From contig DETS01000011.1 in the NCBI GenBank assembly GCA_002361735.1, forward strand, positions 18,539-82,538: a stretch of 64,000 nucleotides of DNA, given 5' to 3'. The notes beneath the pieces are model-generated. The model did not search any database, had not been told where the DNA came from, and saw only the letters and a list, made by a program, of their open reading frames with translations. The stretch's first letter is position 1, and the number at the start of each line of letters is the position of its first letter. Positions 43,964 through 63,958 of the stretch are shown one piece after another. The stretch is from Lachnospiraceae bacterium UBA3282 (GTDB lineage Bacteria > Bacillota > Clostridia > Lachnospirales > Lachnospiraceae). Made by a program: the position numbers and the translations under genes.

Positions 43964-46900
43964 CTATTCTAATAGGAACATTTGGGCGCGGTTTAGGGAT
44001 ACGCTGTCCATACTGAACGCCTCCACACTCTGTCCCGCCCTCGTATAACGGTTCGTGAGCATCACGCAGATCTGCGATTTCTCGTCATCCCCGTTCTGTA
44101 AGGCAATCAGCGGCGCCTTGATGCGATAGACCTTACCCGGAACGATTCCTCCCGTCACCTCCACCAGACGGTTGTTCTCCACCGCCCATATGGGGCTCGT
44201 AAAGGCTGTGTAATCGGCGGTGTTGATCGAGCCGTCCGCCTGCAGGAGTATCGTGTCTGCACCGGCGCCCGGATTCCTGTAATAGAGTGAGAAATCCGTG
44301 ACCTTATCGACTGCAATGTTGTTATCCGTAAAGCGGAAGTATACATCCACCGTATCGCCGAGGATACCGCCTTTTGCGTCTCCGCTCTGCTCGCCTTCCT
44401 TGAATGCCACATCGTAAGGAATGGTGACGCTCTCCACCTTATTCACCCCGTTAAAGCCCGCCACAATGGAGACATTGGCTCTGTGTATGCCGCCGTTATA
44501 TGCCGCCATCAACGCATTCACAAAAATCTTACACTCGTCCAGACCGTCTCCTTCCGGCCCTTTTCCGCTTTCCTTGTCATATCCGTAGGGATACTGTGAC
44601 TGTCCCACATACACCACGTTCCCTTTGCTGTAAACGTAGTAATTATTTCGGCCGTCACAGGGAGAGACACTGTAGCCGCTTGCTGTACGGCCGTCACTCG
44701 AAGCACCGGTATCGAGCAGGGTAAACCACGCCGTAGTACGGGGCTGCCCCGTTCCGCTTCCCTCTCCGGTACTGCCTTCCTCTCCGATATCCAACAGATA
44801 ATCGGGCATCGAGACCTTTGTAGCGCTGCCAAGCTGTGCCCGCGTGTTGACCTGCAGCGGCCATTGCGTGATCACCCCTTCATTGATGCGGTCCAAAAAC
44901 AGACTCGGCGTCTTGTTGAACATATACGCGTCAATGTCTTTGTAGCGATATTGAGAAGGGCTGTGCAGACCGAGTTTTCCGTAAGTCTTTCCATCCTTCT
45001 GTCCCAGAACCGCCGTAGAAAGCCCAAACCTTCCCGTCTCCTCAGAGGCGCCGGCAGAGGAGACAAGCACGCTGCCGCCTGCGGCAATGAACTCATTGAC
45101 CGCTTTAGTCACCGGTTCTCCCGGATTCCTGCTCTCGCCAAATCCCAGCACCACCACATCCCAAAGGGAAAGGTAATTCGGATTCTTATCAAGCAGTTCC
45201 TTCAGCCCATCCTTACCATTACTCGGTTCAATCGTCTTGATGTCCCACGTAATATTTGCTCTTCCCTCCGCCGTCTTCAGATAGTAGGCCAACACAGAAT
45301 TTCCTACCCTTTTATACTGCTCCTCAAAATTGGCATAATCATTCTTCGTATCATCAAGGATCTGCAAAACCCTGATCTTCGTCTTATCATTTCCTGTGAT
45401 CGTAAAATAGCCCTGCGTCGCGGCACGTCGGTATTGGTTGCCATGATCCGCCACCTCCAGCTTCCAAGGCACGATGCCGGAATTGATCTCATTGAAATCA
45501 ACGCTGATCGTACCGCCGTCCGCCGTCTGCTCATGCTGATACCCGGCAATCTCCTCTTCCGGCGCAAAGATACCGTCGTAATTCAGGTCGAGATACAGAT
45601 GTCTGTCCAGCTCCCTCCCGTAGGTCTTATTGTCCCCTGTCCTATCGCTCGAAATCCGGTAGGCAAACGTACCGCGGACGACACCGGTCCGGTCCTCCAC
45701 CGGCTCCGCAGGAATCATGCCTATCTGCTCATTCTGTTCCTCGTCCCCGTTTTCGCCGCCATCCGGCGCAGCATCGTTTTCCCTCTGCAGTTCCACCTTC
45801 GGCCGCAGAGCTTTCAACTGCATCGCAAACATAGCGCTGCTGTGCACGTCCTCGATGGTGTAGAGTCCGACATCCGACTCCTCATCCTCCTTTTGATCCG
45901 CTCTCATGGCGATTGCTTCCTCAAAGAACGCATACATCTGCGTGTCTTTGGCAATATATTTCGTATTGATATCTTTCGCTTCGGCTTTCCTGGCGCTCCC
46001 GCCCGTAAAGCAGTCATTCTCCACCACGATCGGATAGCCTGCCCGCAGATAGTCGAGCAAAGCGTTCTTTTTCTCCGCCGTGATATCGTTCTCATCGTAT
46101 CTGACATCGCTGCCCGCCACGCGGTCTCCTCTGTGGTAGACTTTGCCGTTTAAGTCCGAATCGTTGTAGACTGTCTGCAACATGTTGTCCTTATCAGGCT
46201 CTCTGTAGAGGCGCTGCCCGTCCAGACCGATGAAGATCATATTGTAAGCCTCGTTGATGTCCTCGTGACTGGTGTTGAACGCCGCCACCGAATGCAGCTC
46301 CTTGTCAATCTTTATCTTTCTGGAACTTCTGAGGATCTGCTGTCCGTCCCCGCTCTGATCCTGCCTCTTCCAGTAGAGAACGACTCTTTCCTTATCCGCC
46401 GGCGCTTCATAGTGCAAATCGGACTCTATATTCGCCGTCGGCTGCAGCTCCAGGATGGAGAGATTCTTGTAGTCCCCGACTAATCCGCGGGAGTAATTGA
46501 TGATGTACTGCACTGCCATCGCCTTGCTGACTTCTTCGGCTATCTTCTCATCATCCGCCAACATAACGTTCTCCGCCTTGATTGCCGCCAACACCTCGGT
46601 AAAGCCCGAAGTCGCTGCGGTTTTATCCATCGCATCCGGAAAATCGTCCGCCACCAGCGGTGTCGAACCATTCACAATATAGATATTTCGGTTTACATAA
46701 TGATACTTATTGTCTTTTTTGTTCGGATACTCCGTGGATTCTTTATCCGCATTCATTAAGGCACTGTTTGCCAGATCGTCTGACTTTGCCATCGCGTTAT
46801 AGTAAGCAGCAAGATCCTGTTTCAGAAAGACCTTTGCCAGCTTCTGATACTTGGTATCCGCATAATCGTTTTCATTCGTCACGATGCCGTAGTCCACAAT

Positions 46901-49585
46901 AACAGGCTTTGACTCCTCCACCGCCCCATACAGCAGACTCGTGATCACCGCATCCGAAAGATCACCCACACCGTCATCGGCATTTCCCTTTTTCTCCGTA
47001 TAGATATAGCCCTTCGGCGTATTCTGGTCAAAATAGAGCCCCGTGCCATCCTCGAGGTAGACAAGATTCGCTTCCTGTACCATCTCATACGTCACATCAC
47101 CGGCGAGCACCGTATTCACCTTGATCGCAAAATCATCAGAAGCATTGTCCTGCGCCTTCAAGGAATTAAACACATGTTTTCTGAGATAATCCTTTCCGCT
47201 GGTACACCGTATATATACGGGTGCATTCTGCACCTCGATATAATGCGAAGAAGTACTCGCCGCCGCAATCTCATAATATTCCTGCGCTGTCTGCATATCC
47301 TGTACTTCCTGTGCATCCTGCGCTGCATCTTTCATACTTACAAATTCTATATCCCGCTCTATCGGCTGTACGCCCGTTAATTCCGAAACTCTTTGAGGAC
47401 TGCCTGCCTTGGTAAGCTTATACATTCCCTTTCCGTCGCCAACATATCGAAAACTCCCCACAACAGCAGGATTCACAGCATTGGGTTCCGTATCCAAAGC
47501 TGCAGTTAAGCCGTTTTGGGACAATCCCTTTTCCAAGTGATAGGTATCATAAGGGCGCGGCTGTCCCTCGATCGAATAGAATCTGCCGCTCTCTTTCACC
47601 TGATAAAGCAGTTCCTCCTGCTCGGTCTCAACATAGTTAAATTTTATGATACAATAGGTCCCTTCCTCCAAACCGAGCGTCGGTTGAGGTTCCGGTTCTG
47701 GCTCAGGTTGAGGTTGAGGCTGCGGTTCCGGTTCAGGCTCGGGTTGAGGCTGAGGTTCCGGTTCAGGCTCGGGTTGAGGCTGAGGTTCCGGTTCGGGCTC
47801 GGGTTGAGGCTGCGGTTCCGGTTCAGGCTCGGGTTTGGGTTGAGGTTCCGGTTCAGGCTCGGGTTGGGGTTGAGGCTGAGGTTCCGGCTGAGGCTCCCCC
47901 TCGTTCATAGGCTGCGCTATTTCTACATAGTAACGCCAAGCTCCTGCCGCCCTAGACACAGACTGCACTTGCTGCTCCGACTGAGACTGCGGCTGTTCAG
48001 ACTGTACCTCCTGCTCCCCTTGTTCCATCAACTGCTCAGGCTGCGGTTCCGGCTGAGGCTCAGGTTGAGGCTGAGGTTCCGGCTGAGGTTCCGGCTGCTC
48101 CGGCTGCTCCGGCTGTGGATCGGTCGGTGCCGGATCGGTCGGCTGCGGTTCCGTCGGTGTCGGATCGATCGGCTGCGGATCGGTCGGCTGTGGATCCGTC
48201 GGTGTCGGATCGGTCGGCTGCGGATCGGTCGGTTCCGGATCGGTCGGCTGCGGATCGGTCGGTTCCGGTTCCGTCGGTGTCGGATTCGTCGGTTCCGGCT
48301 TGGTCGGTTCCGGATCGCTCGGCTGTTCCGGCTCCGGTTTCGGACGCGGAATCCCTTTCATCTCTCCGATCGTGCTGGCATAGCGATATACGCCGTTCTC
48401 AACGACATACACACCCGTTGCGTCGGAATAACTGCCGCCAAAGATCACTTCGTCATAACTGCCGCTCATGAGCAATTCCGGGCGATAACCGCTCGTCCCC
48501 ATGACCGGTCCTTCAAAAAATACCTGATACTCTCCCTCTCCGTCCGGTGCAAAGGTAAAGACATCCCCTGCTGCTGTTACAGCGGAAGACATAACCGAAT
48601 CGCCAAAAAGCGAACCGTTCGCCGGCCAAACCAGATTATAGTCATATCCCGAAAGCGCGGGAAGATTATTGATATCCGCCCCCTCAGCATCCGGCCTCCT
48701 ATCCACATAAGCGTAAAGTTCTCCTGTCGAATAGGACGCAGGTGACTGTCCGCCGTCGGGCGCGGCTTCCGCCGGATCATAGATCTGACTCCACATACTG
48801 CTTCGCAGATCCTCACCCATGCCGCCGTAAGCTTCCTGATAGCTGATTCCCTCATAACCGCTTCCCATGACCGAAGTAGTCAATTCTTTTCTTGCCGAAT
48901 AGGGATAGAACTTTTCCTTATCACTCCCCGTAAAAATACGCACCAGATCCTGCTGGATCGGCGACTGTCCCGGCGCAAGATAGCCGATGGTCCCCAGTGA
49001 AAACTCGTATTTCTTATCCGCCGAATATGCCTTTCCCGGCACAATATCCAGGATCACAAAGGGATTCTTCTCGTTGTGTTCCTCCACGACCTGCTTCATG
49101 CCGCCAAAGGACGACTTCGCCTGTACGATAGATGCCGGCGTGCCGTTCATAAAGCGAGGCGATACATAAAGTCCCGTTACCACAAGCGCTGCCGCCACCG
49201 CGACCGCCACCGCGCGCCCGAAGATTTTTTTGCCGGACAAACGCTTACGTGCTCTATAGGGCTTGATTTGCTGCGTCTGCACACTAAACACTTTCAAGTC
49301 CGAACGCGCGCTGTCACGCTCCAGACTGTCCCTGTGCTCATACTCACTGCGCAGCTGTCTGAGCAGATCATTCAGTTCCCCATCCTCCTGCACGCTGTCA
49401 CGATCGGCTGCCCCGACGCTGCCGGCTCTCCCGGCATTCTTTTTATCCTTCGACGCCCGTATGCCCAAAAACGCCGCAAAAGCTGCCGCCGCTCCCATAA
49501 GAAACGTCAAAAGGACAATCAGCGGACTGATCTGCTTTTTCTCCGTATGCTGCCGTATTATGGCATTTTTCTTTTCTCTGCCCAT
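43964..49585 (-). CDS. giant (~1873 aa) membrane-anchored surface protein with a ~200-aa Pro-Glu/Gln/Thr/Asp stalk; last gene of the pilus-like operon; function unknown
   Basis: This is a single uninterrupted ORF. I favour ATG 49585, which is 8 nt after GAGGG; the track start is TTG 49591. There are two hydrophobic segments ([24 protein letters not shown] and [21 protein letters not shown]). PTDPx and [10 protein letters not shown] repeats cover about residues 415-640. The C-terminal region is ~1230 aa. Confidence 0.85.
47682..48350 (-). repeat. coding low-complexity tandem repeats (30-nt unit = [10 protein letters not shown] at 47682-47895; 15-nt unit = PTDPx at 48036-48350)
   Basis: The unit gttcaggctcgggttgaggctgaggttccg recurs with an exact 30-nt phase from 47731 to 47880. 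ggatcggtcgg(c/t)t(g/c)c units repeat from 48115 to 48260. Confidence 0.9.
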
Positions 49586-49615: not shown

Positions 49616-52600
49616 TTAACTTCCCCACTGCCTCCATTGATTCTCATTGCTCTTACACAGAAATGCTGCTACAAAATCCCCATTTGAATTAAAGAACTGT
49701 ATGGTATATTCTTTCGCCGACGGCTCATAGTAACATTTCACTTTGTGAATCCACACAGTCTCTGTTTCCTGCTTACCTTGTTTCAGTATTTTAAGATTAT
49801 AACCATTATTTTCCTGCCACTCATTCCGTTCCCGAGCAAACCCAAGCTTATCTGTAAAGGCACTCTCCGAAGGTAAGGGAATATACATCTTCCCTTTGTA
49901 TGTTTCGTTCCACATTGTAAAATCCACATCCGCCGTGCTGTTGTTCAGCTTTATCACATTGCCCGGCACCTGTGTCTGCCCCGTATTTTTAAGCTGTGTG
50001 TCAAACGTGCCCTTATCTCTCTGTGTCCATCTCTTTTGGCTCTCATCATAGCAGAACAGCCCTGCCGAGGCTTCCATATCACGGTCCCAGTTGTCATCAT
50101 GATAAGTATAGAAGAGCTTCAATTCATAACGGCCGTTCACATACTGGCACTGCATCTGCGCCGCGGAAGGCTGGTAGCTCGTTGTGTCCGTTCTCCCCTT
50201 AACGGTCTTCGCAAAGTATCCCCCTTTCTTCGCGTTCTGCCAATTTGACTCCTCTTTGTTAAAATACTGCGTAAAGTCCGGTTCTGAGGGCGCAGGGAAA
50301 TAAATCTCGCCCAATGTAAACTGATTGTTGGCATAACTCCACAGTTCCAGATTACCGCCCTCTATCACCTCATAGTAAACCGTACTCCTCTTATCCTCGT
50401 AGTACTGTTCCTGCTCATATTTCGGCGTATAACTCGTATAGTAGATACCGCTCCCGCTATAGTGGTCTGCTCCCGAGCCCTGTGTATATGTGATGGTCGG
50501 TATCACCCGGTATTTACCCGCCACCTGGGAGAACTTATCCTTTTTGTTGGTATCCAGCTTGATGTACATATTTTTTACATTGCCGATCTCACTCAGTTTC
50601 AGCGCCTGGTCATAAGGTTCGCTTTCCCCCTCGTATTGTTTCGTTTCACCGTTATACCCGTAAAGCTTTTTCAGACCGCCTTCCGTCTCCCGATACACAC
50701 TGAATTTTACATTCTGCTCGGTAAATCCCCCAAGCGACATATCTCTGGTATTCTTTACCTTATCCACACCGAAGTTTGTGGTAAACGGCCCTGCTAACGT
50801 CGTCACCGTCTGCAGTTTCAACTCGCCCTCCAGATTTTTCTGTCCATTATATTGGTAAAGGATCTCCGGAGGATAGATCATCGTCTCAAGCTTACCCGTA
50901 TGTTCATATGCCGTGCCGATATAGGTGCCGGACACATCGCAGTGAGCCAGATAATCCCCTATCATCGCCTTCACTTCCGGGTGATCGACCAGATACCCGG
51001 TCTTGCCCGCACTCAGGGCAGACCATCCGACTCCTGCCGGTAGCTCGGCTTTGGGTTCTAACGCCTGCAGGGAAAGCTGCCAGGGCTTATTGATCGTTTC
51101 CACACCGAACATATCCGGCGTCACCCGCGTGGTTTTCCCTTCCGAGAGGAAAACCATGATCTTATCGTTGCCTGTAGTGCCGTACTCCCTGATACGCGCA
51201 AAGAGCATATAATAATGAAACTTCGGATTATCAAAAGAGGCCGTAAGATCCGCCGACGCCCCCCAGAGCAGCTCGCCGTTTAAGTCGATATTTTTATTGC
51301 CCTCCACCACCTTAAAGCTAATGGCTCCCGGCACCCACCAGTCGTACTTTCTGCCGTAGGCGTTGTCGCACACGGAGAGCATGGAAAGCGCCTGCACCAC
51401 AAAGAGGTGCGTGACCTTTTCGTCCGAAGTCGGCGCATCCTTATCGATCGTAAGCGTTACGCTGTTCGGTTTCTGGTCTTTGAGCTTCGCATAGGATACA
51501 TCATAAACGCCCGGCTGATGAACTATCCATACCTCACTCCTGCCCTGCGGATTTCCCTCGTACACCACCTGTTTGTCGATCGTGGTATCGTCGCCGCACG
51601 CGCTGCAGACCTCTTCCAACTTATATCCCGTAACATCCGCAGTGATCGTATAGGTGCCGCCCGGCGATACCAAATACACGGTATTTCCCGCAGCATCCGT
51701 TTCTGTCCCGTCCGCAGTTGCGGAAAGGTTCACCGCTCTGACCCTCTTGATATGCACCGTCACGGAGCAGGTGGCCGGCAGCCCGTCATCTCCCACCGCA
51801 TTGGTCGTGATCTTCAGCTTGACATCCCCAGCCGGCTCATCCGTCGCTATCTGCAAAATACCGTTGTCCTTATCCGTAAACTTCGTGCCGCCCGAAGCGC
51901 TGTGCGATTCTTCGACAGACCACACCACGCTCCTGTCCGTTACGTTCTCACCCGTCACTCTGGGCGTGGAAAAATGATAGGTTTCGCCGGGTTCAATGAT
52001 CACGCCCGAATCCCTGGCCGCGACGGAGATGGTCTTTTTCCTGTTGAGCGGATCAAGTTCGGCGTCGTTGACCCCTACCTTATTACGGATGGTGACGTTA
52101 TTGGAGGTGACATACTCCTTGACGCCGTCCTCAAAGGTCAGGGCAAGCATCACCACGCGCTTCTCCTGGACCTGACTCAAATCCACCGAAAAATCCGTCA
52201 CATGACTTGCCAGCGTAACCCACTCGTAACCGGGGTCGCCGAAAATCGGCGCCGTTCCCGTCGTCGCATCCACTTCCGCATAAAAAAGAGTCTCCTCACT
52301 CTTATCCCAATAAAAATGATAGTTCTTGTTGCCGTTTCCATCCTCTATGATATCCGGACCGCCGCTGGGATTCTTGACTAACACGCCATTATACATCACC
52401 AGGCTCTTGTCCTCGGGGGTAAAAGCAAACTCAGCGTCTTTCAGCGCGTATACCGGGCTTCCGCTCGCGTCATAGCCCGCATAATTCACACTCCGGGTGG
52501 TGTCGATCACCACATCCGACATCTGGTTTAAGGCCAGCTGCGCTTCCTGCTGGACGCTGATATCGCTGTTTCCCGCCGCGTAGCTTCTGGAACCGACCAG

Positions 52601-52699
52601 AATAAATCCGCACACAGCCGCAACGACGATGGACAGGATCGCTACCGCTATCAATAATTCCACTATGGTGAAGCCTTTCTGATCCCTTTTCATACGCAT
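49616..52699 (-). CDS. very large modular pilin-like protein (~1027 aa): prepilin N-terminus + Ig-like repeats + large unknown C-terminal region
   Basis: It has the class III signal MRMKRDQKG|FTIVELLIAVAILSIVVAAV with Glu at +5. I chose ATG 52699; the track start is GTG 52711. Residues ~225-330 (TISVAARDSGVIIEPGETYHF...VVWSVEES...ATCSVTVHIKRV) look like a Big_2-type Ig domain, and a second beta-rich module follows. Confidence 0.8.
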   Translation of the reverse strand: MRMKRDQKGFTIVELLIAVAILSIVVAAVCGFILVGSRSYAAGNSDISVQQEAQLALNQMSDVVIDTTRSVNYAGYDASGSPVYALKDAEFAFTPEDKSLVMYNGVLVKNPSGGPDIIEDGNGNKNYHFYWDKSEETLFYAEVDATTGTAPIFGDPGYEWVTLASHVTDFSVDLSQVQEKRVVMLALTFEDGVKEYVTSNNVTIRNKVGVNDAELDPLNRKKTISVAARDSGVIIEPGETYHFSTPRVTGENVTDRSVVWSVEESHSASGGTKFTDKDNGILQIATDEPAGDVKLKITTNAVGDDGLPATCSVTVHIKRVRAVNLSATADGTETDAAGNTVYLVSPGGTYTITADVTGYKLEEVCSACGDDTTIDKQVVYEGNPQGRSEVWIVHQPGVYDVSYAKLKDQKPNSVTLTIDKDAPTSDEKVTHLFVVQALSMLSVCDNAYGRKYDWWVPGAISFKVVEGNKNIDLNGELLWGASADLTASFDNPKFHYYMLFARIREYGTTGNDKIMVFLSEGKTTRVTPDMFGVETINKPWQLSLQALEPKAELPAGVGWSALSAGKTGYLVDHPEVKAMIGDYLAHCDVSGTYIGTAYEHTGKLETMIYPPEILYQYNGQKNLEGELKLQTVTTLAGPFTTNFGVDKVKNTRDMSLGGFTEQNVKFSVYRETEGGLKKLYGYNGETKQYEGESEPYDQALKLSEIGNVKNMYIKLDTNKKDKFSQVAGKYRVIPTITYTQGSGADHYSGSGIYYTSYTPKYEQEQYYEDKRSTVYYEVIEGGNLELWSYANNQFTLGEIYFPAPSEPDFTQYFNKEESNWQNAKKGGYFAKTVKGRTDTTSYQPSAAQMQCQYVNGRYELKLFYTYHDDNWDRDMEASAGLFCYDESQKRWTQRDKGTFDTQLKNTGQTQVPGNVIKLNNSTADVDFTMWNETYKGKMYIPLPSESAFTDKLGFARERNEWQENNGYNLKILKQGKQETETVWIHKVKCYYEPSAKEYTIQFFNSNGDFVAAFLCKSNENQWRQWGS

Positions 52700-52710: not shown

Positions 52711-53286
52711 CTACTTTGCCTTTACCTCAGACTTACCCGTAAGCGCCGTCATTGTGATCTCATACTTCTTACTGCCGCCCTCCACGAATATGATCTCGTA
52801 GAGATTGCCGCTGCCATCCGCCTTAAAACCGCCGGTCGCGCGATCAAACCAAATCTCGATGCTGTCTCCCGGCAGAAACTCCGTTCTGCTGCCTCCCTTA
52901 GGCTGATATGCCACAGTTACCTTTTTCGGACCGACCTTCTGCGGCTCCGACGGCACATAAGAACCGCTGCTGTCCATAACATACATTCGGGTGTACACAT
53001 TTTCATTCCCGGCATCCCGATAAAGCTCCATGTATGCCGATGCCCTGCCCATCGTAGCTACCTTGCAATCCCCGATGGCACGCTGGATATCGTTCGCAGT
53101 ACTCTTAGCATTAGCGCTGAAAATCAAAATAATCGAGTAAAAGACCGTGCCCATGATAACTGCTATGATGGCAAGAACAATGACCAGCTCGATCAATGAA
53201 TAACCATTGTTATTAAAACAACTGTTATCATTTCCCTGTCCGCCTCTTCTATGAAGTTTGCCTTTGTTGTGCTTCCCTACGCTCAA
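52711..53286 (-). CDS. pilin-like protein (191 aa) with an unusually long 28-residue leader
   Basis: The only in-frame start is TTG 53286, 8 nt after GGAAGGA. The leader is MSVGKHNKGKLHRRGGQGNDNSCFNNNG. The mature N-terminus is YSLIELVIVLAIIAVIMGTVF (Tyr +1, Glu +5). Confidence 0.8.
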   Translation of the reverse strand: MSVGKHNKGKLHRRGGQGNDNSCFNNNGYSLIELVIVLAIIAVIMGTVFYSIILIFSANAKSTANDIQRAIGDCKVATMGRASAYMELYRDAGNENVYTRMYVMDSSGSYVPSEPQKVGPKKVTVAYQPKGGSRTEFLPGDSIEIWFDRATGGFKADGSGNLYEIIFVEGGSKKYEITMTALTGKSEVKAK

Positions 53287-55974: not shown

Positions 55975-57552
55975 TCAGTTCGTCGTGCTGCCCTGGATTA
56001 CGACTTTCCGCTTGTCAAGCGGAAAACCGCTCGCCGCTGCCCCCTCTTCGTAGACGCTGACCTCCACATCGTAAATCAGCTCCGTAACCTCGCCTGGATC
56101 AGGATCTTTGCCCATGGGGCTGCGCACGCCGTCCAACGTAAAGATATTCATGCCGCTTGTGCCGCTTAAATCCATATGCGTCCCGTTTACGGTAAACTGC
56201 GCCGGAATCTCCGGATTTGTACCGGGCGCACCGGCCAGATACTTTTCGCCCACCAGATTCAACCCCAAATTGGTCTTTAAGGTAAACTTATCCTTGTCAA
56301 AATGCGGCTCATTGACCTCGACGTCAACGTGATAGAGCAGCTCCGCCGACAGCAGCTGCGGATCGCTCAAATACTCCGGGTCACTCAGATCGGGAAGCTT
56401 CTGCCCCGGATTTGCCGGGTCGTCCATCAGTTTCTCATACCGCTGCTTCGCAATCAGGAGATTTAAGTCCAGGCCCGAGTCGTTATTTATGATGATCTTA
56501 TCGGGCGCAGCCGCGCCGTAAAGCGGATAGTAGAAAATGTTGACGTTGAGTTTTCCGTCCTCCGTTCTGGCAATGCTGCCGCCGGGCATCTTATCCACCA
56601 CGATCCCGGCGTCAATATCCCCATAGGTTGTCACCGGTATATCTATCCCGTTGATGTCTTTATAGTGAAACATATATTTCTGCGTGATCACCATATCCGC
56701 CTTAGGATCCCCGTTTTCATCGACCTCACCGCTGACCGAGAGATCTATGATGATTTCCCGACTAATCTGGTCAAAAAAGACAGGGGCATTTTTATAACAG
56801 ACATAGTTCGCCGAAAGCGGCGTATTTTTCTTCCACAGGCTCTCATACGCATCGTCAAGATCTGCGTCCGCAACCCCGGATGCTTTGAGCTTCGCCTTGA
56901 CAGCCGACTTTATATTCGTATTCTTAAAAACACTGTCAAGCACCGCCCGCCTGATCTTCGTTGACTCTACAAAGGTGCCGTTCTCTTTATCGATGCTCCT
57001 GGCGTCCGCCAAAGCCGCGTCGTTAAATATGCCGTCGTGTTTACGATCCGCTTTGAACGCGCCGCACATCGTACACTTTTCACCGTCAAAAAAAGCCTGT
57101 TCGTAGATATGGCTATGGGAAGCGAAACGTGCAGGATCCATATATCCTCTGGCGTCCACCACGATCTTAGCGTCGAACTTACTGCCCTGCATACTCACAT
57201 CCTTCATGCTGAACACATAGAGTCCGTCCGTGGGATTGCCCATACCCGGCGCCTCCTCCGCCACGCCGCCCTTGATCAGTCTGCTGTCGATCACATAGAA
57301 ACCGTCCGCAGGCTTATCAAACTGCGTCCTGATCTCCTCGATATTATAAGCCTTGAGTCCCTCCATGATATCCTGCGCCGCCGTGGTCGCCCGCAGGGTC
57401 TGTCTGGACCTGATGTTGAGTTTATTGGAAGACAGGAACAAATTCAACAGCGGGATCACAATGATAGCAAGGATAACAACTGCTATCAAAAGCTCCAACA
57501 GAGAAAAACCGGCATCTTTATTCAATTTTCGCCTGTCTGCTGCTGTTGTCAA
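55975..57552 (-). CDS. large (525 aa) pilin-like protein with prepilin N-terminus
   Basis: The start is TTG, 7 nt after GGGAGGG. The leader is MTTAADRRKLNKDAG and the mature N-terminus is FSLLELLIAVVILAIIVIPLL (Glu +5). Confidence 0.8.
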   Translation of the reverse strand: MTTAADRRKLNKDAGFSLLELLIAVVILAIIVIPLLNLFLSSNKLNIRSRQTLRATTAAQDIMEGLKAYNIEEIRTQFDKPADGFYVIDSRLIKGGVAEEAPGMGNPTDGLYVFSMKDVSMQGSKFDAKIVVDARGYMDPARFASHSHIYEQAFFDGEKCTMCGAFKADRKHDGIFNDAALADARSIDKENGTFVESTKIRRAVLDSVFKNTNIKSAVKAKLKASGVADADLDDAYESLWKKNTPLSANYVCYKNAPVFFDQISREIIIDLSVSGEVDENGDPKADMVITQKYMFHYKDINGIDIPVTTYGDIDAGIVVDKMPGGSIARTEDGKLNVNIFYYPLYGAAAPDKIIINNDSGLDLNLLIAKQRYEKLMDDPANPGQKLPDLSDPEYLSDPQLLSAELLYHVDVEVNEPHFDKDKFTLKTNLGLNLVGEKYLAGAPGTNPEIPAQFTVNGTHMDLSGTSGMNIFTLDGVRSPMGKDPDPGEVTELIYDVEVSVYEEGAAASGFPLDKRKVVIQGSTTN

Positions 57553-57617: not shown

Positions 57618-58469
57618 CTATTCCGCCGCGGGTTCCTCTGCTTCACCCTCGGCATTTTCACCTTCTTCGTTTTCCGCGCCTTCCTCCAGATCGGGAAGAT
57701 TTCCCTCGCTGCGGATCACTCTTGTGCCAAAGATATTATTTGTACCCAAAAGCACACCGCCAAAGTCAGGCTCCTCGTACTCCTTGCCCTCCTGCCCGGG
57801 TACACAGAACAGATCCACTGTCGTGGAACCCTTCAAAAGCCCCGTCTGCTCATCGTAAACCACCGTCAGGTTGTTAATGACCATGCGGTCGGTCTGCATA
57901 CAGATATTTTTGACGCTGCGCTTTAAGCCCTCATAAGATACTCCGTAATTAATCGTTGCTCTGCGGTACATCAGATTAAAAGGATTCGCACCGGACGCAT
58001 CGTGTGTCACATCCGCTTCGACCGTTGTGGGATCCTGCGTCCCCGTAGCGTCCTCGATTTCTTCCACTTCTTCGATCTCGTAGGTAGCATCCGGCATATC
58101 CGGATCCTGTGCCTCCACTATCGGCACCTCCAAAAGGGCGTCTATGGTGACGGACTCCACCTCCATCGGAGAAAGCAGTTCCTGATTGATCGCCAAAAGG
58201 ATCGCGTTTTCCTCGCGCACATCCACCGGGAAAAGCTGGTAAATTTCCTCCATCTCCCTGCGCATCCGCGCCGTCTCACTCTCGTAGGTGTCGCGGTTTT
58301 CCTTCTTGCTCTGCAGATCCGCGATCCGATCCTCCAACTGCTTATTCTCCTGCATAAGCGCCTCGTTCTTTTCCGTCGTCGGCTGGAATACAAACAGATA
58401 GGAGCAAACGGCAGCCAGGATACCCAGAAAACCAACCAAAATCAATATATCTCTCTTTGATACCTTCAT
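57618..58469 (-). CDS. pilO: PilO-like pilus assembly protein
   Basis: 283 aa. It has an N-terminal TM (ILILVGFLGILAAVCSYLFV), a coiled coil (NEALMQENKQLEDRIADLQSKKE) and a globular domain. It sits after PilM-PilN. The C-terminal tail is acidic. Confidence 0.65.
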   Translation of the reverse strand: MKVSKRDILILVGFLGILAAVCSYLFVFQPTTEKNEALMQENKQLEDRIADLQSKKENRDTYESETARMRREMEEIYQLFPVDVREENAILLAINQELLSPMEVESVTIDALLEVPIVEAQDPDMPDATYEIEEVEEIEDATGTQDPTTVEADVTHDASGANPFNLMYRRATINYGVSYEGLKRSVKNICMQTDRMVINNLTVVYDEQTGLLKGSTTVDLFCVPGQEGKEYEEPDFGGVLLGTNNIFGTRVIRSEGNLPDLEEGAENEEGENAEGEAEEPAAE

Positions 58470-58481: not shown

Positions 58482-60245
58482 CTATTCCGCTGCTGCAGCC
58501 GCATCCGCGTCTGTTCCGCCGTCTTCTGTATCTTCTGTATCTTCCGTCTCCTCGGGCGGCTCATAGCCCACTGCCTGATAGGGCGCCGTCACCGTAAAGT
58601 TGACTGTATGCTCGCCGCTCTCCTGATTCTCCTCCTCGACAATGGAAGTCACTGTCACGCGATCCGGAATCAACGAGTGGAAGGTACGCATCTGCTCCAC
58701 CGTCTCACCCACATCATCCTTTGTCTGCACCTTCATATTGATGCTGACCTCGAGGGAACTGCTGGAAAAGGAAACAACATTGACATTGGAGGGCAGCTTA
58801 TCCTCGAGCTCTCCCAAAAATTCTTCCAGCTCCTCGTTCCTGCTCTCCGTCGCGTCGTACATGGCGCCTACCATAGCACGCTCCGTCTGTACTCTGACAT
58901 ATTCATTATAGATGGGGATGATATCTTCCAGACTGCCCGCCTGCGCCTTTAACTCCATATTCGTCTTTGTCAGCTTCGCGTAGTTGACCATCGGAATCGC
59001 TGCCAGAGCGGCGGCCGCCGCCAGACCAACGCCAAAGATACTGTAAGCAAGCGGCGCCCAATTCGTCCCCTTTTCCGCGCTGCTGCCTGCTTTGCCCTTC
59101 TTTTCCTTACCGCGCTTCTCCGCCTCCTGCTTAAAATCAAGCGGTGCGACAGCGGCGCCCACGCAGGCTATGTATTCGCTGAAGCACTCGTTCTTAAAGT
59201 TACGCATCAGGTTCCAGCCTGCCGCTTCCTTTAAGACCGTCACCGGCATATTGACTTCCTGAGAAATCAATTCGCCCATGCCCTTAAAGTCCGCGCCGAG
59301 ACCCGTGATGAGGATCCTTTCGATGCCTTCGCCCGAAGTCCTGGACGCATAGTAATCGATGACACGGGAGATACCGTTGACCAGCGGCACAATGGCATCC
59401 ATCACGTCCTCCAGCGCCTTGGTCTTTGCCGTCCGCACCACAGGCTGCGGCTCCGGTCTGCCGATATGCGGTTCCTCCGTCTCAACTTTCTCTGTCTTTG
59501 ATTTATCCTCCAGCGTGATACACTCGTTTCGCTGCAGCACGCGGATCGCCTGCTCCACGGAAGTAACCTCGCCCCAGCAGAGCGTGTTCATGACCGCCTC
59601 CATGACCGCCTCCACGCCGTAGGAAACGTTTCTGGTAAAGGTCATCACGGAATCCTCCACCGCCATCACCAGGGAAGACCGCTCGTCAATCTTAACGACG
59701 ATGTGCTTTCCTTTTGCACACTCGTCCTTCACTACCTGATAAATACTGTTGCTGGCGTAGTCAATCGCCGCCACCTCCAGCTTCAGCGCCTTCGCCAGCT
59801 CATAATAACCCGTAAGGAGCGAGGACGGTACTGCAATCACCATCAGCTTATACTGCTGAGAGCCCTTTTCCCCGACTGTCCCTAAGATCGTATAAGAAAG
59901 CTGATACTGGCTTAAGTCCACCGGAAAATAATCCGAAGCGTTGGCGTTGACCACGTCCGCGATCCTGTTCTCCTTTACAAAGGGGATCATGACTTCACGG
60001 CTGGCGATCTTGGAAGAACCGATCGTGAACACCACCTGTTTGGTCTTTACATGGTTCACCGCAAGCGCGCGCTGCAGATTCGCCACATATTCGGGAGTCG
60101 CATTCAGCGCGCCGTCGTTAATGATCTCCGCGCCGTTTGCCACCGTAAAACTCTTATAGATTCTGTGTGTCTTCGCCTTGTAGTCCACTTCGCAGACTTT
60201 CGTCAGCGAATAGCCGATCTCTATCGTGATCGCTCTGGAAGCCAT
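58482..60245 (-). CDS. pilM: PilM-PilN fusion protein (actin-like ATPase fold + TM + PilN-like domain)
   Basis: 587 aa. The N-terminus ITIEIGYSLTKVCEV...VFTIGSSKIASREVMIPFV...RILITGLGADFKGMGELI is PilM/FtsA-like. A TM follows (WAPLAYSIFGVGLAAAAALAAIPMV), then a coiled coil and a PilN-like domain. Confidence 0.75.
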   Translation of the reverse strand: MASRAITIEIGYSLTKVCEVDYKAKTHRIYKSFTVANGAEIINDGALNATPEYVANLQRALAVNHVKTKQVVFTIGSSKIASREVMIPFVKENRIADVVNANASDYFPVDLSQYQLSYTILGTVGEKGSQQYKLMVIAVPSSLLTGYYELAKALKLEVAAIDYASNSIYQVVKDECAKGKHIVVKIDERSSLVMAVEDSVMTFTRNVSYGVEAVMEAVMNTLCWGEVTSVEQAIRVLQRNECITLEDKSKTEKVETEEPHIGRPEPQPVVRTAKTKALEDVMDAIVPLVNGISRVIDYYASRTSGEGIERILITGLGADFKGMGELISQEVNMPVTVLKEAAGWNLMRNFKNECFSEYIACVGAAVAPLDFKQEAEKRGKEKKGKAGSSAEKGTNWAPLAYSIFGVGLAAAAALAAIPMVNYAKLTKTNMELKAQAGSLEDIIPIYNEYVRVQTERAMVGAMYDATESRNEELEEFLGELEDKLPSNVNVVSFSSSSLEVSINMKVQTKDDVGETVEQMRTFHSLIPDRVTVTSIVEEENQESGEHTVNFTVTAPYQAVGYEPPEETEDTEDTEDGGTDADAAAAAE

Positions 60246-60312
60246 TTGCCATTTCCTCCCTCATTTCGCCAGGCGCTCAAAAACGCCTGCCGATATTCTC
60301 ATCTATAAAGTG

Positions 60313-60435: not shown

Positions 60436-61191
60436 TCACAGCAATCGTGAAAAGTACCAGTTTATCATCCGCTCGCCCCACAGCGCCGCGATCATGACGC
60501 CCATCGATAAGTAGGGTCCCATCGCCAATACATGCCCCTCGCCGCTTACTTTCATGCGGATCACATGGATGACTGCGCCCAAAACACAGCCGAGCAGAAA
60601 CGCCAAAATAATCAATTTCCAGCCGAGCAGCAGTCCGCAGGCTGCCATCAGCTTCACATCGCCGCCGCCGATCGCTCTGCCGCCGGTGGCATAGTACAAA
60701 ATCGCTAACACAATACTGACAGAAAGGGAGCCGATCAAGTAGGTAAGGATATTGGAGAAGTCCGTCGCCGCCCGGATCAGCCCCAGTGCCAGTATAAACA
60801 GATTGATTCCAAAGGGAATCTCATAAGTCCTAAAATCGATCACGCTCAACACAAGGAGCGCGGAAGCCAATAGACAATAGAGTAGGGAATCTATGCCTAT
60901 ACCGCCTGTCCATACGATACAAACGTATAAGATTCCGTTCGCCGCCTCAATCAGAGGATACTGGACAGAAAGTTTCGCGCCGCATTTGCGGCACTTTCCC
61001 CGCAGGGCAAGGAAGCTGAACAGCGGGATCATATCGTACCATTTGAGGTGGTAGCCGCAGCTCATACAATGGGAGGCGGTCTTTACGATGTCCTCCTTCT
61101 TCGGGATGCGATAGATGCAGACGTTTAAGAAGCTGCCGATCACGATGCCAAAGATGAATATGATGCAGTAGAGTATGATATCCGGTGCCAT
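60436..61191 (-). CDS. pilD: prepilin peptidase / N-methyltransferase (A24 family, PilD)
   Basis: The MAPDIILYCIIFIFGIVIGSFLNVCIYRIP start is followed by the Cys box HCMSCG...CRKCG. Catalytic Asp contexts are VIDFRTYEIP and GGGDVKLMAACG. I chose ATG 61191 with an AAAGGA RBS. The track's TTG 61248 would read through the G12 tract. Confidence 0.9.
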   Translation of the reverse strand: MAPDIILYCIIFIFGIVIGSFLNVCIYRIPKKEDIVKTASHCMSCGYHLKWYDMIPLFSFLALRGKCRKCGAKLSVQYPLIEAANGILYVCIVWTGGIGIDSLLYCLLASALLVLSVIDFRTYEIPFGINLFILALGLIRAATDFSNILTYLIGSLSVSIVLAILYYATGGRAIGGGDVKLMAACGLLLGWKLIILAFLLGCVLGAVIHVIRMKVSGEGHVLAMGPYLSMGVMIAALWGERMINWYFSRLL

Positions 61192-61230
61192 GTCCTGTCC
61201 TTTACGGGAAAATTGGTTGGTAACGTATTT

Positions 61231-61242
61231 CCCCCCCCCCCC
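61231..61242 (-). repeat. homopolymeric G12 tract (C12 on the + strand) 39 nt upstream of the pilD ATG
   Basis: Twelve consecutive C on the plus strand. It is the only homopolymer of this length that I noticed in the window. Confidence 0.95.
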
Positions 61243-61345
61243 ATGCAAAAATGCGTTTTTTGAAGTTCGCTTTTCTGCACAGAGGGCGAGGGGTTACGTT
61301 GTGTTGCTTATGTCTTTATCTTATGTAGGTTGTGCGGGTAGGTTA

Positions 61346-61822
61346 TCAGGTCCCGGCAGGCTTGCCAGCCATAGCATCCTGAAAAGCAGTGGTAGCTTTT
61401 CCGCCTGTGTTTGTATAAACCCAGGTAATATCACCATTAGCCCCCATTGTTCCCGTCATCGTATAAGTAGCCCATCTGGTCTTGCTGACACACTTAATAT
61501 CAGCTACCTTGAGCCCTGCCGCTTTGATTGCATCCGTTCCAACTGCTGATGCAGTACCATCTATTGTTGTGCCGGTACCCTCAACCTTAATTTCAATAGT
61601 CTGCCCTGCAGTCGCGGAAGATGATGCCTCAGGATCAGCGCACCATGTTTCAACTGCAATTTTGAGCTCGGTCGCATTCTGCAGATCGGTTGAGTTACGG
61701 GATCTCTCCACGTATTTCAGGTACTGAGGAGCCAGTACCACGATCAGGATCGCCATGATCGCGATAACGATAATCAGCTCGACGAGGGAGAAACCTTTGT
61801 TGTTCATGTTCTCTTTTTTCAT
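61346..61822 (-). CDS. pilA: major type IV pilin (158 aa)
   Basis: The leader is MKKENMNNKG and the mature N-terminus is FSLVELIIVIAIMAILIVVLAPQYLKYVE (Glu +5). The RBS is strong (GGAGAAGGAAACAATG). There are two Cys residues in the C-terminal half. Confidence 0.88.
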   Translation of the reverse strand: MKKENMNNKGFSLVELIIVIAIMAILIVVLAPQYLKYVERSRNSTDLQNATELKIAVETWCADPEASSSATAGQTIEIKVEGTGTTIDGTASAVGTDAIKAAGLKVADIKCVSKTRWATYTMTGTMGANGDITWVYTNTGGKATTAFQDAMAGKPAGT

Positions 61823-61910
61823 TGTTTCCTTCTCCTTTTCCTCATGATTCTTGGTTGTTTGGTTTTTGGTTACTCTATCTTAAACGCGGCTGTTCCCTAC
61901 TCAGGCGCGT

Positions 61911-62087
61911 TTAATTCGGTTTGTTTTTCCTCTCCCGGAATTGACGCTCCAGTCGTTTCAATAATTCTTTATTTTCCCGAAATATCTGTCTCAATTCTTC
62001 CTCATCCACATCATCTCTCTGCCCTGCCGGACAAAGGGTAATCGGTGCAGGATTAAATTTTATATCGTTCAATGTATACTCACTCAT
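61911..62087 (-). CDS. small hypothetical protein (58 aa) with charged helical C-terminus
   Basis: I moved the start to ATG 62087 (MSEYTLNDIKF...) after GGAAGGTG. It begins 16 nt after the stop of the JAB-like ORF. A short hairpin follows at 61884-61910. Confidence 0.5.
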   Translation of the reverse strand: MSEYTLNDIKFNPAPITLCPAGQRDDVDEEELRQIFRENKELLKRLERQFRERKNKPN

Positions 62088-62103
62088 TTTTTCACCTTCC
62101 AAA

Positions 62104-62697
62104 CTAATGATAAAACAGTCCAACCTCACTGCACCTTGCCAAGAAGGTCAAACTCGCCATATAATATTCCTGTACCTTTGATTTCGCTGTTAATCCAACA
62201 ATACACTCGTTATATAATTCCATAGAAGCATCGTAGTTATATTCATTATCTTTGCAAAGATAATGGACAATACCTTGATTTGTAACTACTACCATTATTC
62301 TAATTGACTCAAAATGAAGAAAAAATCTTATATCTTCTATCGATAATGTCTGCGTAGACGGATGATTATGCAAAACCACCACAGCGCATCTTCGTGATGA
62401 CAAAATCAAATGATTCGATGCCGTATCTGCACAGATATCTACTTCATGTTCATCCCCAAAAGAAATACCAATTTCTTTCCACGGATCATCTCCATCTAAT
62501 GTACAGGTTATTGCCACCTCATTGCTATTGTTTTCTGTCTGCGATGTGAGCAAAACAAGTTTCGCCAACTGATACAGCACATCACTTTCCTTGTCGCTTA
62601 GTCCCCTGTATTGTATCAAAGGAACTTTTTCAACAGCAACATCTGTAATATATATCTTTTTATCTCTCTTTTTTGCAAATAGTTTCGTTTCTTCCAC
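62104..62697 (-). CDS. JAB/MPN (RadC-like) metalloprotease-domain protein, divergent
   Basis: At about 62337-62378 the motif CAVVVLHNHPSTQTLSIEDI matches the RadC/JAMM pattern aaIlaHNHPSGxxxPSxxDI, but the spacer is one residue shorter. A candidate upstream Glu is in KEIGISF. The GTG start has a weak RBS, so the start is uncertain. Confidence 0.55.
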   Translation of the reverse strand: MEETKLFAKKRDKKIYITDVAVEKVPLIQYRGLSDKESDVLYQLAKLVLLTSQTENNSNEVAITCTLDGDDPWKEIGISFGDEHEVDICADTASNHLILSSRRCAVVVLHNHPSTQTLSIEDIRFFLHFESIRIMVVVTNQGIVHYLCKDNEYNYDASMELYNECIVGLTAKSKVQEYYMASLTFLARCSEVGLFYH

Positions 62698-62743
62698 TCT
62701 ATTTTATGCAACCGCTTCCTTAATACTCTATACTATCATTTAT

Positions 62744-63958
62744 TTACAGGTTATCCAGTGCCGCGTACATCGTCACCATAGGCGCCATCACCGCCGCGAT
62801 CAGGATGCCGACGATACCCGCCAGTACGATGATGATCATGGGCTCCATAGCCGCCATCAGGGACTGCACCGCCATCTCCACTTCTTCTTCGTAGTAGTCC
62901 GCCAGTTTATTGAGCATCTCCTCCGTGGAACCCGCTTCCTCACCGATCCTCATCATATGATAGACCATGGGCGGGAACAAACCGCAGGTCTGCACGGGCT
63001 GCGATAAGGGCACGCCGACCATGATCTGCTCGAGCGCCGACTTTAAGGCTTCCTTAAACCAGATATTCGTCATGGTGTCCGAGACGATGTCCACCGCCTC
63101 GATCAGAGGCACGCCTGCCGTCAGCAGGGTGCTTAACGTCCGCGCCATCTGTGCGCTGGCTGTTTTTACCACCAGATTCTTAATTGCGGGAATCTTTAAC
63201 TGCAGCTTCCCGAACACATGCTTGCCGGAATTGGTCTTTGCGTATGTCTTAATCAAAAATACGACAGCTATGACCACGGGAATGATGATGTACCAGTTAT
63301 TTTGAATAAAATTACTGAGGGCGACCACCGCCAGCGTGATTGCCGGAAGCTCCGTATCGAGCTGCTCAAACATATCCATATAACGGGGGATGACGAACAC
63401 CAGCATCACGATCACGACCACTACCGCAATGATTGCCACCACGATCGGGTAGATCATGGCTTTCTTTACCAATGCCTGCGTCTTTGCGGATTTCTCGAAC
63501 TGGATCGCCATGCGCTCCATCGCCGTATCCAGACTGCCGGACGCCTCGCCCGCCCTCGCCATCTGCACCAAAAGCTCCGGGAACACTGCCGGATGCTCCG
63601 CCAGGGAATCGGCAAAGCTCTCGCCCTTTTCCACATCGGCACGCACGGCGTAGAGGGCTTTCTGCATCTTCTTATTTTCCGTGGAATCCGCCAGCATGTT
63701 CAGGGTCTCGATGATCGTGACACCCGCTCTGGTGATGCTGGCAAACTGTCTGCAGAACACTGCCATATCACGGGGTGTCGGCTTGCTGCCGAAATCAAAG
63801 CTGATATCCTTGGTCAGCATATTCTGCTCTGTCAGTTCCAGCACAATAAGACCCTGATTTTTCAGATCCCTGAGCGCGAGATCCTTATTATCAGCGTCTC
63901 TACTGCCTTTTACTTCCTTGCCGCTTTTATCGATCGCAACATATCCCCAGACCGCCAT
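62744..63958 (-). CDS. pilC: type IV pilus/T2SS platform protein (GspF/PilC family)
   Basis: 404 aa with the duplicated T2SSF architecture. FCRQFASITRAGVTIIETL and MARTLSTLLTAGVPLIEAV each precede TM segments. The RBS is GGAGGA with a 6-nt spacer. Confidence 0.9.
   Translation of the reverse strand: MAVWGYVAIDKSGKEVKGSRDADNKDLALRDLKNQGLIVLELTEQNMLTKDISFDFGSKPTPRDMAVFCRQFASITRAGVTIIETLNMLADSTENKKMQKALYAVRADVEKGESFADSLAEHPAVFPELLVQMARAGEASGSLDTAMERMAIQFEKSAKTQALVKKAMIYPIVVAIIAVVVVIVMLVFVIPRYMDMFEQLDTELPAITLAVVALSNFIQNNWYIIIPVVIAVVFLIKTYAKTNSGKHVFGKLQLKIPAIKNLVVKTASAQMARTLSTLLTAGVPLIEAVDIVSDTMTNIWFKEALKSALEQIMVGVPLSQPVQTCGLFPPMVYHMMRIGEEAGSTEEMLNKLADYYEEEVEMAVQSLMAAMEPMIIIVLAGIVGILIAAVMAPMVTMYAALDNL

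Follow-up and report, generated by a model that had tools for sequence, protein, structure and literature searches.

Modular pilins located at the tip of type IV pili, and non-pilin adhesins that dock on complexes of minor pilins, both have a published precedent (PMC8179133; bioRxiv 10.1101/614800). The locus described here was found in a 64,000-nucleotide (64-kb) stretch of DNA of Lachnospiraceae bacterium UBA3282 (GenBank assembly GCA_002361735.1, contig DETS01000011.1, positions 18,539 to 82,538 of the forward strand), which is referred to as the window. It is a type IV pilus gene cluster with ordinary core genes, whose minor-pilin block encodes four pilin-like proteins of 525, 879, 191 and 1027 amino acids (aa) and is directly followed by a gene for an 1873-aa protein of the DUF5057 family (the giant). 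These five co-inherited genes probably constitute a new pilus-tip adhesion module.

The FimU-PilV-PilW-PilX-PilY1 system of Gram-negative type IVa pili (core minor pilins plus PilY1, the pilins being equivalent to GspH-I-J-K of type II secretion) resembles this locus in having four pilin-like genes after the assembly genes, one of them coding for a protein without glutamate at position 5 (Glu5), with a gene for a large non-pilin protein directly next; the proposed role, priming followed by a tip location and presentation of an adhesin, is also alike. The two differ in gene order (I-K-H-J in the window), in the size of the proteins, three of the four being 3-6 times larger here, and in the lack of sequence similarity past the N-terminal helix. 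The last protein is also unlike PilY1: it belongs to DUF5057, carries a Sec signal anchor and has neither a beta-propeller nor a von Willebrand factor A (vWA) domain, and its host is a Gram-positive bacterium with no secretin. In the type IVb systems CofB/CofJ and TcpB/TcpF, a large tip minor pilin initiates assembly and adapts a secreted non-pilin protein encoded in the same operon, which is the arrangement proposed here; however, those are systems of Gram-negative enteropathogens, and their secreted partners are of ~35 kDa and have an unrelated fold.

PilB (vWA) and PilC (lectin) of Streptococcus sanguinis, like the pilins of the window, come from a Gram-positive bacterium and carry a class III leader; they combine a small pilin module with a bulky one, as the 525- and 1027-aa pilins probably do, and, like these, are predicted to be tip-located and adhesive (PMC8179133, PMC9934059); the module of PilC is a concanavalin A-like lectin (PMC8179133). 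Whereas these proteins are of ~50 kDa and have recognisable domains, the pilins of the window reach 525 and 1027 aa and have bodies without a Pfam or PDB sequence match, and neither the 879-aa protein nor the DUF5057 protein has a counterpart in S. sanguinis. Modular pilins as such are widespread: a survey counted more than 1200 proteins with 264 architectures, among which the longest pilin reported had 860 aa (PMC8179133).

Tapirins (4wa0, 6n2c) are surface adhesins that lack LPXTG; their genes directly follow pilO and a single minor pilin gene and close a Clostridia-class pilus locus (bioRxiv 10.1101/359786, 10.1101/614800); the order in Caldicellulosiruptor bescii is PilO - Athe_1872 (pilin) - tapirins (bioRxiv 10.1101/614800). 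The 879-aa gene of the window occupies the equivalent position, after pilO and the 525-aa pilin gene, and tapirins, built on a beta-helix core from which a long loop extends, rank first, albeit weakly, among the structural matches of its product; their interaction with the pilus is likewise unproven. Unlike the 879-aa protein, tapirins are of ~600-700 aa and bind cellulose, and their locus contains no DUF5057 protein.

Two further Clostridia-class pilus operons are comparable. The gene order in Clostridioides difficile is pilMN-pilO-pilV-pilU-pilK, with a pilM-N fusion as in the window, and the minor pilins of Clostridium perfringens are of ordinary size. The main pilus locus of the latter species (pilM-pilN-pilO-cpe2280-cpe2279-pilA3-cpe2277; PMC6958937) also has its minor pilin genes after pilO and ends, before a terminator, in cpe2277, a gene of unassigned function to which no phenotype has been attributed; the C. 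perfringens papers call the post-pilO genes simply minor pilins. A search of the accessible literature yielded no paper mentioning DUF5057 and none describing a Lachnospiraceae pilus of this type, and homologues carry hypothetical annotations. A preliminary description of the window, made without database searches, had been unable to match the locus to a characterised system. This still holds in so far as no described system was found, except that the giant belongs to an already named family and that modular pilins are known as a class.

The best explanation of the locus is a type IV pilus operon of the Clostridia type, present here with its distal half and belonging to a mouse-gut Lachnospiraceae bacterium. 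Its nearest genome locus is that of MGBC101899, a mouse-gut Lachnospiraceae metagenome-assembled genome (MAG), with 93% identity across the DUF5057 region. All open reading frames (ORFs) listed in the preliminary description were recovered at identical coordinates on the minus strand in an ORF check of the window. The features, in minus-strand order, are as follows:

62744-63958, minus strand: pilC, platform protein of 404 aa (Pfam T2SSF, E 4.6e-63, two copies)
61346-61822, minus strand: major pilin of 158 aa (N_methyl 33.8 bits; ...NNKG|FSLVE)
60436-61248, minus strand: pilD, prepilin peptidase (A24_N_bact, E 6.4e-35; Peptidase_A24, E 3e-20; probable start ATG 61191)
58482-60245, minus strand: pilM-pilN fusion of 587 aa (PilM_2, E 5.9e-15)
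57618-58469, minus strand: pilO-like gene, 283 aa (by position and by topology: N-terminal transmembrane segment, coiled coil, acidic tail)
55975-57552, minus strand: probably modular minor pilin of 525 aa (N-terminus similar to PilV/GspI; N_methyl 29.6 bits; G|FSLLE)
53309-55948, minus strand: 879-aa protein with a hydrophobic N-terminal helix without Glu5, a predicted beta-solenoid middle and a conserved C-terminal domain
52711-53286, minus strand: minor pilin of 191 aa, GspH/ComGD/ComGE-like (G|YSLIE; N_methyl 30.0 bits)
49616-52699, minus strand: giant, probably modular pilin of 1027 aa with a ComGF/GspJ/PilW-like N-terminus (ATG 52699; G|FTIVE; N_methyl 34.4 bits)
43964-49585, minus strand: DUF5057 protein of 1873 aa (PF16480, E 5.6e-30)
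47682-48325, minus strand: tandem DNA repeats encoding the proline-rich stalk of the DUF5057 protein (Tandem Repeats Finder)
43889-43921, minus strand: terminator-like hairpin closing the unit (14-bp stem, -27.4 kcal/mol, then UUUUGUGC)

The core machinery named in the preliminary description (PilC, the 158-aa pilin, PilD and PilM-PilN) was confirmed by Pfam, PilM and PilN proving to be a fusion, which is conserved in relatives; its pilM part matches TIGR01175 with E 4.8e-24 (85 bits, cut-off 133) and its PilN part is weak (E 0.026). For pilO, the call stands by position and topology, while hidden Markov model (HMM) searches gave no significant match (GspM best, E 0.054); a homologue nevertheless comes after PilMN in all related loci. 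The 158-aa pilin gave partial matches to PilA/GspG-type models, and its gene has its own 281-nucleotide (nt) upstream region.

The four pilin-like proteins sum to 2622 aa, in agreement with the more than 2600 aa noted before. Start-codon analysis gave 1027 aa (rather than 1031 aa) and 1873 aa as the best lengths for the last pilin and the giant, as described earlier, and with the best start codons the intergenic gaps from the pilO-like gene onward are 65, 26, 22, ~11 and ~30 nt, so that the close packing described earlier (11-30 nt, with 65 nt back to pilO) was reproduced. A terminator scan detected no strong terminator inside the five-gene block. The terminator placed at 43889-43921 was upheld, as the hairpin has a z score of -4.3 and none of 200 shuffled sequences was equally stable; a simple terminator scanner missed it because its U-tract is just UUUU.

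Class III signal peptides were assessed with the N_methyl models (PF07963, TIGR02532; Pfam cut-off 21.2 bits). The 525-, 191- and 1027-aa proteins and the 158-aa pilin scored 29.6-34.4 bits, and each has one N-terminal hydrophobic segment; thus, all three leaders recognised earlier in the minor-pilin block lie above the cut-off. N_methyl was also matched by 28 of 28 family members of the 1027-aa pilin. In addition, the 525-aa pilin matches the PilV model TIGR02523 (E 1.5e-7, covering residues 14-68 only), the 191-aa pilin gives partial matches to ComGE (E 1.4e-5), GspH (E 4.7e-4) and ComGD, and the N-terminus of the 1027-aa pilin partially matches ComGF, PilV and GspI/GspH models; the last protein was taken as the GspJ/PilW counterpart because of the ComGF match. 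Weak, sub-threshold matches of this kind suggest that N-termini of the GspI/PilV, GspK/PilX, GspH/ComGD and GspJ/ComGF types are present, which would fit a priming/tip quartet.

The lengths of 525 and 1027 aa require extra modules beyond the pilin module. No such module was identified in the bodies of these two proteins by Pfam or by PDB sequence search, and a Pfam scan of 28 relatives of the 1027-aa pilin returned nothing beyond N_methyl. PDB searches with the four largest proteins singly, and with profiles of the 879- and 1027-aa families, gave only low-complexity or N-terminal pilin-helix matches. None of the five large proteins contains an LPXTG-like motif.

The N-terminus of the 879-aa protein (...DRGSAIVIVIIAMAMIGILATT...) has no Glu5. 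The absence of Glu at +5 (...RDDRGSAIVIVIIAMAMIGILATTLLW) is conserved in 29 family members, and such a helix (...DRGSAIVIVIIAMAMIG...) is a hallmark of the GspK/PilX type. The PilX/GspK-type helix proposed for this protein was therefore retained as a helix without Glu5, and not as a profile match: PilX_N (PF14341) was matched by one of the 29 family members (E 9.6e-4) and not by the protein of the window, for which Pfam gave no family match at all. A homologue search detected 848 relatives, and the 120 listed carry no functional name (unnamed or "hypothetical protein").

An AlphaFold2 model of the 879-aa protein (predicted local distance difference test, pLDDT, 68) comprises a 41-residue helix (24-64), further helices, a four-strand sheet (strands 130-209), a beta-rich solenoid (227-400), two disordered stretches and a confident C-terminal domain. 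As modelled, the N-terminal helices and the four-strand sheet are compatible with a pilin-like head bearing an insertion. Foldseek returned nothing at E <= 0.001 for this model, and no pilin or GspK match. The top-ranking structure was the tapirin C-terminal domain 4wa0 (Caldicellulosiruptor; E 0.011, probability 0.75, TM score 0.31), followed by a second tapirin and generic beta-helices. Since there is no sequence-level link (a profile of the 879-aa family searched against PDB found no tapirin chain even at E 10), this resemblance is a lead and not a family assignment.

The giant scores 105.4 bits against PF16480 (gathering cut-off 27.9) over profile positions 1-376 of 378, and distant giants in syntenic position match the same profile with E values of 1e-39 to 1e-60. 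It has neither a class III motif, consistent with the earlier statement that it lacks a pilin N-terminus, nor an LPXTG motif. It consists of a transmembrane segment (aa 18-36), a signal anchor (120-138), an alpha/beta domain (~150-425), a Pro/Glu/Gln stalk (~426-640) and, C-terminal to the stalk, ~1100 aa with class I glutamine-amidotransferase-like (GATase1-like) and beta-sandwich domains.

The plan shared by the giants was read from an alignment with homologues at 36-63% identity and from comparison with far more distant ones. It includes (i) a K/R-rich hydrophobic N-terminal signal anchor, often with an A-x-A-like site after it, (ii) an alpha/beta domain opening with ...PF(V/x)ILE(I/V)VP..., (iii) a linker highly variable in length and composition, and (iv) a conserved block of ~1100 residues. 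Since the distant giants begin with a K/R-rich stretch, a hydrophobic segment and an A-x-A-like site, Sec export is indicated. The giant of the window has an extra N-terminus of ~115 aa (49240-49585, minus strand), in which the hydrophobic segment (aa 18-36) is accompanied by a strongly charged spacer; this extension is confined to the nearest clade (P0003, P0017), and other homologues begin at the signal anchor.

The stalk (215 aa; 35% Pro, 19% Glu, 18% Gln) is encoded by tandem repeats, namely 6.9 copies of a 30-nt unit at 47682-47889 and 15/30/45-nt units at 48110-48325, and strain-to-strain variation in its length is therefore likely. A short conserved element, G-W-x-x-x-V, sits between the two repeat tracts. 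The last eight codons of the giant (43964-43990, minus strand) encode ...RAQMFLLE, and other giants mostly end in ...LFDLE, ...LFDLD, ...LFELN, ...LFNLN or ...LFTLS, a feature kept from 23% to 90% overall identity with one exception (L066, ...GLADID). A docking strand and a sorting signal are two conceivable roles of the conserved C-terminus. The mature N-terminus of pilins has a similar F-x-L-E pattern, perhaps by chance.

An AlphaFold2 model of residues 770-1875 of the giant, based on a 37-sequence alignment (pLDDT 71.8, predicted TM score 0.69), had no whole-chain PDB match in Foldseek. Local matches were found to the CTP synthase GATase domain (class I glutamine-amidotransferase-like, probability 1.0), to chain 7oci_G of the yeast oligosaccharyltransferase (OST) complex and to immunoglobulin-like beta-sandwiches; transglutaminase matches with a TM score of ~0.1 were disregarded. 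The GATase-like domains are unlikely to be catalytic because the Cys is not conserved. Neither a beta-propeller nor a vWA domain was found by Pfam or among the listed Foldseek matches of this model. Homology to the PilY1/PilC tip adhesins (IPR008707, PF05567) was ruled out, as there was no Pfam match and no beta-propeller in the modelled residues 770-1875. As for the earlier proposal that the giant is a functional analogue of PilY1, the linkage to minor pilin genes was confirmed; the functional analogy we infer, and it would not rest on homology. The 2024-aa DUF5057 giant of another Lachnospiraceae MAG (L067:1959-8033) carries an inserted Laminin_G_3 domain (concanavalin-like lectin; E 1e-21).

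Comparison of related loci revealed the conserved order PilMN - PilO - ~450-aa pilin - ~800-aa protein - ~190-aa pilin - variable-size pilin - DUF5057. In the ~115 loci with enough upstream DNA, the DUF5057 gene is placed directly after the minor-pilin block within a type IV pilus cluster, except in one (L110, see below). A one-genome-per-species collection yielded 67 loci, nearly all from Lachnospiraceae and 52 of them with a full-length homologue of the 879-aa protein; five-gene content and order were identical in every locus with enough upstream DNA. Metagenomes were scanned with short-type DUF5057 proteins as queries, counting loci with at least 3.5 kb of upstream sequence, and an 879-aa-type gene plus minor pilin genes were present directly upstream of the DUF5057 gene in 57 of 58. 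The same order was observed in all nine individually fetched contigs, down to 23-25% identity. Distant members at this level of identity (Agathobacter, Anaerobium acetethylicum, Acetatifactor and others) keep PilD-PilMN-PilO-pilin-X-pilin-pilin-DUF5057, where X is the 879-type protein, and the DUF5057 gene ends the pilus cluster in all five distant representatives that were fetched singly. The question set beforehand was whether homologues occur mostly away from pilus genes; this is not so, and the proposal that the five genes form one module with PilMN-PilO gained support from their co-inheritance in the same order.

An exhaustive search with the DUF5057 profile gave 944 clusters (50% identity) at E <= 0.001 and 734 at E <= 1e-10; among the 150 listed proteins that were not already-known fragments, all but two are of 1000-3700 aa. 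A word-indexed search with a profile of the DUF5057 region returned 8 fragments only and did not widen the family. Lengths in the wider set are 356-529 aa for the PilV-like pilin, 697-910 aa for the X protein and 1236-2136 aa for the giant, some giants having just 1236-1265 aa; the fourth pilin is usually of 165-235 aa in relatives, is sometimes absent and reaches up to 1297 aa. It follows that this pilus lineage had large I-like and K-like proteins and a DUF5057 protein from its origin. The length of the 1027-aa pilin and that of the stalk are local, clade-specific elaborations; the stalk and the 1027-aa size emphasised at first are thus real in the window and not general to relatives.

The reading that we favour, and consider reasonably probable, is that an oversized priming/tip complex and a co-inherited, Sec-exported non-pilin partner act in adhesion. 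The four genes after pilMN and pilO would encode the pilus-initiating complex, with the 525-aa protein as its PilV/GspI-like, the 191-aa protein as its GspH/ComGD-like and the 1027-aa protein as its GspJ/ComGF-like component, and the 879-aa protein as a GspK/PilX-like cap. PilD would cleave the three class III leaders. On the PilC/PilMNO platform, the four N-terminal helices would come together and prime the polymerisation of the 158-aa pilin; as the initiator of polymerisation, the quartet is proposed to be located at the distal pilus tip. There, the extra modules (the predicted beta-solenoid of the 879-aa protein and unassigned non-helical modules elsewhere) could serve as ligand-binding heads. 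The giant, which is not a pilin, would be exported by Sec via its N-terminal signal anchor or signal peptide. In this clade, the ~215-residue Pro/Glu/Gln spacer would separate its N-terminal domain from a C-terminal mass of ~1100 residues, predicted to contain non-catalytic GATase1/ThuA-like alpha/beta domains and Ca-loop beta-sandwiches. The giant may be a non-pilin partner of the tip complex, similar to PilY1, CofJ or tapirins, borne at the tip or placed on the cell surface beside the pilus, with a role in adhesion. The Laminin_G_3 insertion in the relative L067 and the tapirin fold as best structural match of the 879-aa protein are hints in the same direction.

A bolder form of this reading is put forward tentatively, the balance being somewhat against it: DUF5057 proteins may be an unrecognised class of non-pilin type IV pilus partner in gut Lachnospiraceae that docks on a very large minor-pilin tip complex, possibly via the C-terminal ...LF(D/E/L)L(E/D/N) tail or the N-terminal alpha/beta domain. 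If true, docking would make the pilus tip a multi-module adhesion platform of 400-500 kDa, DUF5057 would represent a third "carrier" solution beside modular pilins and the PilY1 beta-propeller, and the question of wall crossing would be forced.

Several observations weigh against the favoured reading. A tip complex of >280 kDa must cross the Gram-positive wall, and we know of no mechanism for this. The H/I/J/K assignments rest on matches that span only the N-terminal 20-70 residues and stay under the cut-off of each model. The tapirin match is weak (E 0.011, TM score 0.31) and without sequence support, and the giant has no PilY1 beta-propeller. Taken literally, the two hydrophobic segments that it has in this clade predict a cytoplasmic location of the large domain, provided that the first one does span the membrane. 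In the metagenome locus L110 (9761-14263), a 1500-aa DUF5057 gene has no minor-pilin block, and a gene for a 359-aa T2SSE-like ATPase and unrelated genes are found upstream; a rearranged locus, a second gene copy or a chimeric assembly may explain this. Deletion of the C. perfringens gene cpe2277, which is likened to the giant by its terminal position only, left the pilus-dependent secretion of BsaC unaffected (bioRxiv 10.1101/2024.11.04.621531). Finally, any contact between the giant and the pilus is putative.

It is also conceivable, although we judge it unlikely, that the quartet is a tip complex and that the DUF5057 giant is not carried by the pilus and instead belongs to the machine as an accessory that is anchored in the membrane and spans the wall. 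The N-terminal domain of the giant would then lie at the membrane by PilMNO, the Pro-rich spacer would pass through the peptidoglycan, and the C-terminal mass, at or beyond the wall, would form or guard the pilus exit as a stand-in for the missing secretin/alignment parts. The signal anchor kept in all homologues, the lack of LPXTG and the long Pro-rich spacer of this clade agree with such a role; however, the 1236-1265-aa homologues have no such spacer or a very different one, so that spanning of the wall by the spacer is not the core function, and the A-x-A-like sites behind the hydrophobic segment suggest possible cleavage of the anchor. A machine part would be expected to be strictly co-inherited with PilMN/PilO and the minor pilins, as the giant is, and the fold classes are of a scaffolding type (non-catalytic GATase1-like, cf. 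OST Wbp1) and not typical adhesin folds. Conversely, the lectin-type insertion in one relative fits ligand binding better, and to our knowledge the C. difficile pilus locus has no DUF5057-like giant. Passage of the pilus through the Gram-positive wall is an acknowledged open question, yet S. sanguinis builds pili with only ten proteins (PMC6916266).

Still less probable, in our estimation, is a type II secretion-like pseudopilus with the DUF5057 giant, and perhaps the large pilin-like proteins, as its dedicated cargo or surface-displayed product. It would account for a giant with an ordinary Sec signal that is always last in the operon, H/I/J/K-like quartets are also the core of type II secretion pseudopili, and in C. 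perfringens a matrix protein can be secreted by means of clostridial pilus genes (bioRxiv 10.1101/2024.11.04.621531). However, the 158-aa major pilin is a typical one with its own upstream region (281 nt), a Sec-exported protein of a Gram-positive bacterium without an outer membrane needs no second secretion step, and a 1:1 gene linkage is unusual for cargo.

Immediately downstream of the pilus unit are two further genes:

42151-43701, minus strand: comM (Mg_chelatase/ChlI domains)
41013-42230, minus strand: dprA

Their presence and some partial N-terminal matches of the minor pilins to ComGD/E/F models would be in keeping with a competence (DNA-uptake) pilus whose large proteins capture DNA, but this was rejected as very improbable, because comM-dprA adjoins the cluster in the closest clade only, the cluster abutting topA-codY in most relatives, the hairpin at 43889-43921 and a promoter-like site divide the two units, the PilMN/PilO machinery is of the pilus and not the Com type, and no DNA-binding fold was detected.

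The principle of the favoured reading, an oversized tip complex with a non-pilin partner, is not new, since modular pilins are widespread and non-pilin partners that dock on minor-pilin complexes are known. What appears to be new is the specific, near-obligate association of DUF5057 with type IV pili, the uncharacterised family of ~800-aa proteins with a GspK-like N-terminus, and the scale of the complex; the proteins with class III signal peptides are among the largest found, reaching ~1300 aa in relatives. Lachnospiraceae are among the most abundant gut commensals, and their attachment to mucus, food particles and other cells is poorly known. The analysis places the DUF5057 and 879-aa families in a genomic context and proposes a role for them that can be tested. 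Should the tip-complex model be right, it would broaden the concept of a carrier and an effector module at pilus tips, provide candidate adhesins for studies of colonisation and offer a test case for the crossing of a thick wall by bulky tips; should it be wrong, these pilus operons would still have in the DUF5057 protein a conserved part that calls for an explanation.

The genes 3' of the pilus cluster are comM, dprA, topA, codY and a flagellar operon (window 37877-43701 and 30281-36487, minus strand), and a promoter-like site is located with the hairpin 43889-43921 between the pilus unit and comM-dprA. The placement of comM and dprA between the pilus cluster and topA-codY is limited to the nearest clade. 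In most relatives, topA-codY abuts the pilus cluster and is followed by the flagellar operon (flgB/C, fliE/F/G/H/I), so that the pilus and flagellar loci are conserved neighbours. At the other end, pilB is located immediately outside the window edge, as seen in L078 (same organism). No riboswitch or other RNA family was found with Rfam at 43000-64000.

Between pilB and pilC, L078 (1179-5406, just upstream of window position 63958) encodes a pair of polytopic membrane proteins, one with 614 and the other with 764 aa. They have no Pfam match and look like GT-C/YfhO-type glycosyltransferases (many hydrophobic segments and a large soluble C-terminal part), which may point to glycosylation of the Ser/Thr-rich pilin. 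A GtrA-like gene is present within the minor-pilin block of L074. Between pilC and the pilin gene of the window there is a 197-aa ORF (62104-62697, minus strand) with a GTG start and no clear ribosome-binding site. It matched nothing in Pfam or NCBIfam, and contains ...VVLHNHPSTQ..., which we take to resemble a JAB/RadC-type metal-binding motif; homologues of ~200 aa sit between the DUF5057 gene and topA in two related loci (L053, L054).

A run of 12 G (61231-61242, minus strand) was found between the stop codon of the pilin gene and the probable pilD start, ATG 61191. It is the sole homopolymer of at least 10 G in the 64 kb and could serve as a slipped-strand switch acting on the expression of pilD and the downstream genes.

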